From the IMG/VR virus record IMGVR_UViG_3300005323_000036: a stretch of 27,951 nucleotides of DNA. The stretch is one strand, 5' to 3'. This document shows, in pieces, positions 23,317-23,800 of this stretch; positions within the stretch are counted from its first letter, which is position 1; the number at the start of each line of letters is the position of its first letter. The notes under the pieces are model-generated. The model did not search any database. It saw nothing but the letters and a program-made list of their open reading frames with translations, and was not told the origin of the DNA. Both the position numbers and the translations under genes were made by a program. Source of the DNA: a virus. Taxonomy: Duplodnaviria > Heunggongvirae > Uroviricota > Caudoviricetes.

Positions 23317-23381
23317 TTTGAAATCTAATGTAATAGTGCAGCATTCAGTTGGATGTTGTATGTAACTTAAACCAAACCAGA

Positions 23382-23528
23382 ATGGAACGTTACGATATTG
23401 CTCTCCGTGTACAGGTCAAATCTGTATGCGGGGATTGTGGAAGCATTTTAGCAGGTTTAGAACACCACATATCAAAGTTGTTAAACCGCCGTGAATATCA
23501 GCAATTGATGGAAACCACGAAAAAATAA
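23382..23528 (+). CDS. 48-aa CxxC micro-ORF embedded in the structured RNA locus
   Basis: MERYDIALRVQVKSVCGDCGSILAGLEHHISKLLNRREYQQLMETTKK*; no clear RBS; overlaps a 13-bp hairpin. Confidence 0.35.
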   Translation: MERYDIALRVQVKSVCGDCGSILAGLEHHISKLLNRREYQQLMETTKK

Positions 23529-23573
23529 AGAGTTGCTATGGTTGTAAACCCCATCTGATCAATGGTTCAACTT

Positions 23574-23639
23574 GGTAGATGTAACTCTAACATGGTAAGA
23601 GTGTCGCGAGGTAATCGGTTCGAGTCCGATCTTCTACCA
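23574..23639 (+). tRNA. tRNA-like element lacking an anticodon arm (pseudo-tRNA or tRNA mimic)
   Basis: Acceptor GTAGATG/CTTCTAC (6 of 7 pairs) plus extra G-C; U8-A9; D stem ACTC/GAGT with GG in the loop; T arm ATCGG-TTCGAGT-CCGAT; only 11 nt (GTCGCGAGGTA) between the D and T arms. Confidence 0.75.
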
Positions 23640-23800
23640 TTGGCCGGATAGTTTCTGGATTAAATGAAGCCGGTGGTTTAGGGGTTCTTTTCCCATTAAA
23701 GAATAATTTTGTCATTCACTTTTGTTCCTTTTGGATTGATCTTTAATAGATCAATTCTCAATATCGATAGTATTATCTATTTTTAAGTTAAATTGATATT

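Follow-up and report, generated by a model that had tools for sequence, protein, structure and literature searches.

A conserved structured RNA unit with a tRNA-like module that lacks the anticodon arm, in a tailed virus probably infecting an archaeon

What is made from the stretch at 23335–23756 of this viral DNA, where hairpins, a tRNA-like fold and a 48-codon frame follow each other within about 400 nt: a small protein, a decayed tRNA gene, a ribosome-rescue RNA, or a non-coding RNA in its own right? A preliminary description, made from the letters and their open reading frames, had proposed a composite RNA bounded by promoters, recalling tmRNA and perhaps belonging to an undescribed class. 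Here the window, i.e. the whole stretch of 27,951 nt that was analysed, corresponds to bases 50521–78471 of a virus record of 127,255 bp (IMGVR_UViG_3300005323_000036), which has terminal repeats and a G+C content of 30%. Genes for a DNA polymerase of family B, a ribonucleotide reductase and an RFC/RuvB-like ATPase were identified in the virus. When the polymerase was compared by tblastn to the phages in GenBank the top matches were just 23–25% identical, and the cultured viruses with the lowest E-values were haloarchaeal tailed viruses.

The 8-mer TTATATAC occurs about 51 times genome-wide, and TTATATA[CT] is found in 13 copies 21–28 nt upstream of an ATG that opens a frame of at least 40 aa, with the other distances almost empty. 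This spacing is the pattern expected of an archaeal TATA box driving leaderless mRNAs, and the virus is therefore accepted as probably having an archaeal host. No tRNA gene was detected in the whole virus genome with ARAGORN, and the 127-kb virus was found to encode no SmpB (PF01668), no Ro60/TROVE (PF05731) or RtcB (PF01139) protein, and no tyrosine or serine recombinase (PF00589, PF00239).

Boundaries and 5′ hairpins of the unit

A TATA box, TTATATAC, is located at 23309–23316 (+) and represents the genome-wide promoter motif; the same motif is present ahead of the homologous unit in a related virus described below (L018 3302–3295). Unlike the protein genes, the unit has no ATG at leaderless distance from this box, and transcription is expected to start at about 23338–23341, at the foot of an 11-bp hairpin (H1). 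At the other end there are four T4 runs (23688–23732, +), which from their sequence might constitute an archaeal terminator, followed by a 10-bp inverted-repeat hairpin (23733–23757, +; -11.3 kcal/mol, z -3.8) that could serve as a terminator stem or, alternatively, as an operator for the promoter that follows. The unit is then bounded by a promoter-like motif, TCGATAGTATTAT, at 23764–23776 (+). The promoter boundaries on both sides, the T-rich tract and the terminal inverted repeat of the preliminary description are thus all borne out, the last at a significant z score.

An identical copy of the 13-mer TCGATAGTATTAT is located at 23020–23032, and the two copies flank the unit together with the upstream gene of 84 aa. 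Each copy ends 24 nt upstream of an ATG (23057 and 23801), with a different palindrome ahead of each. The motif looks like a second promoter class, composed of a BRE and a weak TATA box, and its position suggests that the ATG at 23057 is the true start of the 84-aa gene.

The whole stretch 23335–23756 folds with a z score of -3.18, and the 120 nt starting at 23321 have the lowest folding energy of the 12,714 windows taken from both strands of the 127-kb genome (rank 3 after correction for G+C content), the minus strand at the same place being unremarkable. Counts of 11-bp hairpins show no enrichment genome-wide and the folding signal is therefore local to the unit, where single hairpins have z scores from -3.8 to -6.2. 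The comparison with shuffled controls, which the preliminary description had named among the possible refutations, came out in its favour at the level of the whole stretch. This does not extend to the further GC stems that had been proposed for the 3′ domain (23640–23700), with z about 0 and no better than shuffles. A scan of the unit against Rfam gave no family at gathering score, and no match to Y RNA, YrlA or tmRNA at E values up to 10.

H1 is a 5′-terminal hairpin of 11 bp with four G-U pairs (23336–23361, +; -11.5 kcal/mol, z -4.7), located behind the TATA box just as the preliminary description had it, and is absent from the relative. It is followed by a GUAAC/GUUAC hairpin (23362–23393, +), which is part of the MFE fold and holds the ATG of the 48-codon frame in its loop, and the relative has a GUAACA/UGUUAC hairpin at its predicted 5′ end. 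H2, with 13–15 bp and the loop GUCAAAU (23402–23434, +; -20.3 kcal/mol, z -6.2), is the most significant of the hairpins. Its counterpart in the relative is a 14-bp hairpin with the loop GUCAAA and a different stem, where four pairs are changed on both sides, four on one side and one is broken, and the GGUCAAA loop is conserved. The 13-bp stem with the loop GTCAAAT had thus been correctly described, but its likeness to a T loop is not supported, as it has a G at the T54 position, and the interpretation of 23402–23434 as a minihelix is unsupported. A helix AAGTTG/CAACTT that had been thought to close a separate domain is not upheld either, as the local domain (23529–23573) has a z score of -0.28 and the enclosed stretch is absent in the homologue.

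Downstream of H2 there is a variable insert (23435–23537, +), absent from the relative in the alignment, and then a 12-nt motif, AUGGUUGUAAAC (23538–23549, +), which is identical in the relative. No site complementary to this motif is present in the viral genome, so that a target recognised by base pairing would have to be sought in the host. The next hairpin, H3 (23551–23565, +), has a 7-nt loop, CUGAUCA, that is identical in the relative, on a stem that reads CCAU/AUGG in this virus and (CUC)UGAU/GUCA(GGG) in the other. CAATGG (23560–23565) and CCATTG (23637–23642), for which an alternative pairing had been suggested, are both present. A kissing contact between the loops of H2 and H3 is not claimed because it would span just 4 bp, and C/D-box, H/ACA and hammerhead readings were set aside on the sequence and on the absence of Rfam matches.

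The genome also contains mini RNA gene repeats, composed of TTATATAC, about 20 nt, a 14-bp hairpin and a T run, at 22732–22810 (+) and 25145 (-) of the window and at 17624–17696 (-) of G000. The two copies in the window are on either side of the unit, one 550 nt upstream and the other 1.4 kb downstream, and the promoter-proximal sequence of the unit resembles them (TTATATACTTTxAxATC...TAGTG). In G000 a mini RNA gene sits where the relative has its array of tRNA-like elements. Other unusually long hairpins in the genome are one of 16 bp in an intergenic position (window 14512–14547, +) and one of 21 bp (G000 45855–45904, -).

A tRNA-like module and its counterpart in a related virus

The tRNA-like module without an anticodon arm is located at 23573–23639 (+), and was recognized from its sequence, with a descriptor and by covariation with the relative. 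It is closed by a 9-bp acceptor-type helix, UGGUAGAUG/CUUCUACCA, with one U-U mismatch, and within the helix follow UAA, a 4-bp D stem, a D loop AACAUGGUA containing GG, a 12-nt linker, and a 5-bp T stem with the loop UUCGAGU. The acceptor, the U8, the D stem with its GG loop and the T stem of a canonical tRNA can all be found, but not an anticodon stem with a 7-nt loop. Instead 12 nt join the D stem to the T stem, and because these replace both the anticodon and the variable arms the module cannot decode. A tRNA descriptor consisting of the acceptor, U8, a D stem with a GG loop and a canonical T arm (G53-C61, loop UUCRANN) gave one match in the genome and none in 300 Markov-shuffled genomes, which confirms the tRNA mimic of the preliminary description. 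It is the sole such element in this virus.

The Rfam tRNA model (RF00005) gives no match to the module at E values up to 10, and the Rfam model for tRNA-Sec a weak one of 16.5 bits. CCA is not encoded at the end of the module. At 3-70 the module has an A-U pair and its counterpart in the relative a C-G pair, a G-U pair being found in neither, and the -1:73 pair covaries, being G-C here and A-U in the relative. A GNRA mini-hairpin considered for the linker was rejected for lack of conservation, the sequence being GUCGCGAGGUA in this virus and GCCAAGGGAUU in its relative. Directly after the module there is a 5-bp hairpin (23644–23658, +), and the relative has a 5-bp hairpin of different sequence in the same place.

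The relative was reached through the 436-aa protein encoded in the neighbourhood of the unit, which led to a virus on two contigs (C4 and C8) of the genome bin G001, with about 45–72% protein identity to the present virus over dozens of genes, or about 50–60% as an overall figure. Its unit was found by a tRNA scan on contig C8, between genes of the tail module, and contains in order TTATATAC, the GUAACA/UGUUAC hairpin, the 14-bp hairpin with the loop GUCAAA, AUGGUUGUAAAC, the hairpin with the CUGAUCA loop, CAACU, and a tRNA-like element. This element has a 9-bp helix, UAA, a 4-bp D stem, an 11-nt linker and a 5-bp T stem, and like the module it has no anticodon arm. The syntenic stretch of the relative (C4; L006 5921–9042) contains other small genes and a TnpB gene, and no unit. 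Since the homologous unit is located elsewhere in the relative's genome, orthology is judged from the architecture rather than from the position. The TnpB/IS605 OrfB gene (L006 6729–7862) belongs to the variable early region of the relative, opposite the block of small genes in the window.

In a structural alignment of the core, with 22 pairs, 9 pairs are unchanged, 1 has a one-sided change, 11 are changed on both sides and 1 is broken, and when the partners are slid just 2–7 pairs stay intact. Identity is 45% in the paired columns and 62% in the unpaired ones. Half of the acceptor, D and T pairs (9 of 18) are changed on both sides relative to the homologue. A MAFFT alignment that was not fitted to the structure has 97% of the cells paired with 7 double changes in the 18 pairs, against 21–54% paired and 0–1 double changes when slid. 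The family has two members only, and the covariation therefore rests on one pairwise comparison between two sequences, in which each change counts once. Loops that are conserved on stems that are rewritten yet still pair are what a selected RNA structure would leave as its signature. The composite structured RNA that had been postulated is upheld by this one homologue, which keeps the order of the modules and has compensatory changes in the stems, and the anatomy of the unit, its statistical significance and its conservation with covariation in one relative are thereby established.

The tRNA-like element of the relative is not alone. Three non-canonical tRNA-like elements follow one TATA box in an array at L018 2788–3166 (-), which corresponds to contig C8 of G001. 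They score 41.6 (the homologous copy), 37.8 and 31.1 bits with the Rfam tRNA model, and none of the three is called by ARAGORN. The second has a 5-bp anticodon-type stem with a GAAA tetraloop, and the third an 8-nt "anticodon" loop. The three are spread along about 680 nt without a called gene, which we read as one transcript. On a contig of a relative (L038, around 1235–2265) there is a 1-kb stretch without called genes that contains two TTATATACTATTAAAAATAA units on the minus strand, and these may be further small RNA genes.

Searches for more family members were made by several routes. Exact and degenerate DNA patterns of the module gave nothing useful in viral, metagenome and genome contigs, and blastn against the GenBank phages nothing useful as a homologue of the unit. 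The neighbouring proteins and the DNA polymerase led to no useful homologue among the viral contigs. Homologues of the 163-aa and 138-aa neighbours are on short contigs without the unit, and patterns of the shared motifs gave chance matches in coding DNA only. A covariance model (R1) run over G000, G001 and all loci returned the two training copies and a 20-bit match to the second tRNA-like element of the relative.

The bin G001 (GCA_964500195.1) is a metagenome-assembled genome labelled Candidatus Saccharibacteria, in which at least 75 kb of archaeal-type virus (C4, C8) stand beside a bacterial 16S rRNA and a bacterial RNase P RNA (C1). A marker protein of the virus was found in one of 401 Saccharibacteria genomes, and the bin is therefore not reliable on the host; the virus contigs are probably a contamination of the bin.

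The 48-codon frame, tRNA remnants and tmRNA

The 48-codon frame with a CxxC motif (23382–23528, +), which had been taken for an mRNA-like domain, is present but is probably no gene. If it were expressed, the unit would be an ordinary small-protein gene giving an mRNA for a 48-aa CxxC peptide, with the hairpins and the tRNA-like fold as UTR elements for stability or processing. The frame is open in the sense orientation among many genes of 50–115 aa, and a tRNA-like element forming the 3′ end would suit an mRNA. It is also the best of the three frames by codon score and beats 71% of clearly spurious frames (29% score higher), so a micro-protein is conceivable, but the same score falls at the 2.5th percentile of real coding chunks and the codon usage is ambiguous. 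Against 5.8 billion proteins the frame matches only itself, and it has no Pfam or PHROG match and no Shine-Dalgarno motif. Its ATG is inside a hairpin loop and a 15-bp hairpin is located within the frame. Frames of at least 48 codons arise in 21% of shuffled 507-nt regions (p 0.21). In the relative about 100 nt of the frame are missing and the conserved GGTCAAA falls in a different reading frame, and the longest frame there (62 aa) crosses the tRNA-like module and shows no similarity to the 48-aa peptide in BLASTP. The frames of 48 and 62 aa are most likely by-products of RNA genes that are poor in stops and richer in G+C, and we regard a small-protein gene as unlikely.

The tRNA-like fold could also be what is left of a tRNA gene after deletion of the anticodon arm, or a tRNA-derived attP site, beside hairpins that arose by chance. 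The virus has no tRNA genes of its own, and a low-scoring tRNA-like gene in another archaeal tailed virus, HrrHF2_450 of the halovirus HF2, is an attP site (PMC8707807). In the present virus no tyrosine or serine recombinase that could act as integrase is encoded, and there is no matching cellular tRNA, as neither 185,579 species genomes nor IMG/VR contain an exact match to the 3′ half of the module. The tRNA shape has both of its halves and lacks the anticodon arm, its elbow nucleotides are unaltered, the stems covary and have been kept by compensatory changes across about 50% protein divergence, and the flanking hairpins are conserved as well, all of which makes decay or an attP site very improbable. 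Still less can be said for a tmRNA-like ribosome-rescue RNA, the analogy of the preliminary description, even if a tRNA-like part and an open frame would be on one transcript as in tmRNA. ARAGORN proposes a tmRNA when its thresholds are lowered to 80%, and finds none with the default settings, and neither do the Rfam tmRNA models. The topology differs, as the module is contiguous (23573–23639) and not built from two RNA ends, and the frame is located upstream with an ATG of its own and is not conserved. With A-U or C-G in place of the G3-U70 pair, and no SmpB in the virus, the tmRNA reading is already refuted on those defining features that could be tested, and the chance that it applies is negligible.

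A processed viral RNA or an embedded tRNA mimic

We give about an even chance to the explanation that the unit is an independently transcribed non-coding viral RNA gene (an "RNA moron"), equipped with a TATA promoter and a U-tract terminator of its own, and with a module that is processed by host enzymes. Transcription, cleavage and the role of the released RNAs we infer from the sequence as follows. The primary transcript should be about 400 nt and consist of three parts. The first would be a 5′ hairpin domain with H1, the GUAAC hairpin and H2 with its GGUCAAA loop, the second the conserved motif in single-stranded form followed by H3 with the CUGAUCA loop, and the third the tRNA-shaped module, with an acceptor-type helix, D arm, T arm and elbow, and the 12 nt replacing the anticodon and variable arms. 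The module appears to keep the features that are read by RNase P, tRNase Z, the CCA-adding enzyme and elbow-reading proteins and to discard decoding, and it might thus serve as a handle for host enzymes that read the tRNA shape. Cleavage of the module at its 5′ side by RNase P and at its 3′ side by tRNase Z would give a 5′ RNA of about 230 nt with the two conserved loops and a tRNA-shaped RNA of about 66 nt.

Such processing has precedents. Both in plant mitochondria (PMC1920247) and in a haloarchaeon (PMC6546412) RNase P and RNase Z cut t-elements, which have also been used in Haloferax to release RNAs (PMC6546412). Like the t-elements and other cases of tRNA punctuation, the module is a tRNA-shaped fold that does not decode, placed within a longer predicted transcript, and keeps the acceptor, the T arm and the elbow; its cleavage would be the further likeness. 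The relative moreover strings three such elements along one non-coding stretch, a series that looks like punctuation. The three modules in series and the t-element precedents together favour cleavage that releases the 5′ RNA of about 230 nt. What sets the module apart from the t-elements is its presence in a virus, a closed helix of 9 bp, a complete D arm, and its linkage to a domain of conserved hairpins.

In MALAT1/mascRNA and MEN-beta a tRNA-like fold, in which the anticodon arm is crippled, comes straight after a long non-coding RNA, and cleavage by RNase P makes the 3′ end of the upstream RNA. The arrangement in the unit is the same, but the former are eukaryotic nuclear RNAs with a triple-helix end, they have no sequence relation to the unit, and processing of the viral RNA is predicted. 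RNase P also cuts precursors of tRNA-His, where the -1:73 positions are paired, which counts against reading such a pair as the mark of an uncleaved module.

The pair bears on another explanation, which we consider possible but doubtful, namely that the module stays embedded and uncleaved and that the whole RNA docks on a host factor reading the tRNA shape, with the conserved loops doing the work. The 9-bp helix is longer than a normal acceptor, and together with the covarying -1:73 pair it hints at a helix that is closed by the flanks, favouring an uncleaved module. The absence of an encoded CCA points in the same direction, as do the conserved 5′ loops and motif, which suggest that flank and module function together, and the three different anticodon-less designs in the relative, among them the one whose 5-bp anticodon-type stem ends in a GAAA tetraloop. 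The host factor might be a modification enzyme, the ribosome, RNase P (which would be inhibited), or a defence nuclease that targets tRNA, for which the RNA would be an uncleavable decoy. The nearest known case is YrlA, a tRNA-like Y RNA of bacteria and mycobacteriophages (PMC4201824), likewise a non-coding RNA that combines another functional stem with a tRNA-like module, in which D and T arms are present and the remainder of the RNA closes an acceptor-type stem. Unlike YrlA the unit matches no Y RNA or YrlA model in Rfam and has no recognisable Ro-binding stem motif, the virus has no gene for Ro60/TROVE or RtcB, and no candidate partner was identified, which counts against an embedded module of this kind.

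More tentatively, and with about the same doubt as for the embedded module, the two units may be the first two members of a so far undescribed class of non-coding RNAs in archaeal viruses, in which the anticodon-less module would be more than a cutting signal and would deliver an effector domain (GGUCAAA, CUGAUCA and AUGGUUGUAAAC) to the host machinery that reads the tRNA shape. Such an RNA might serve to block or redirect a defence aimed at tRNA, or a step of tRNA maturation. A literature search found no published description of anticodon-less tRNA mimics in archaeal viruses.

For annotation, the frames of 48 and 62 aa reported by gene callers at these loci are probably artefacts of RNA genes. 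The non-coding RNAs of archaeal viruses are almost unexplored, and the locus offers a testable case in which the promoter is defined, cleavage sites are predicted, and two loops and one motif are conserved. Cutting of the module by RNase P and tRNase Z would mean that archaeal viruses make small RNAs by tRNA punctuation, and an uncut module would make the unit an archaeal-virus counterpart of the tRNA-like Y RNAs, or a decoy.
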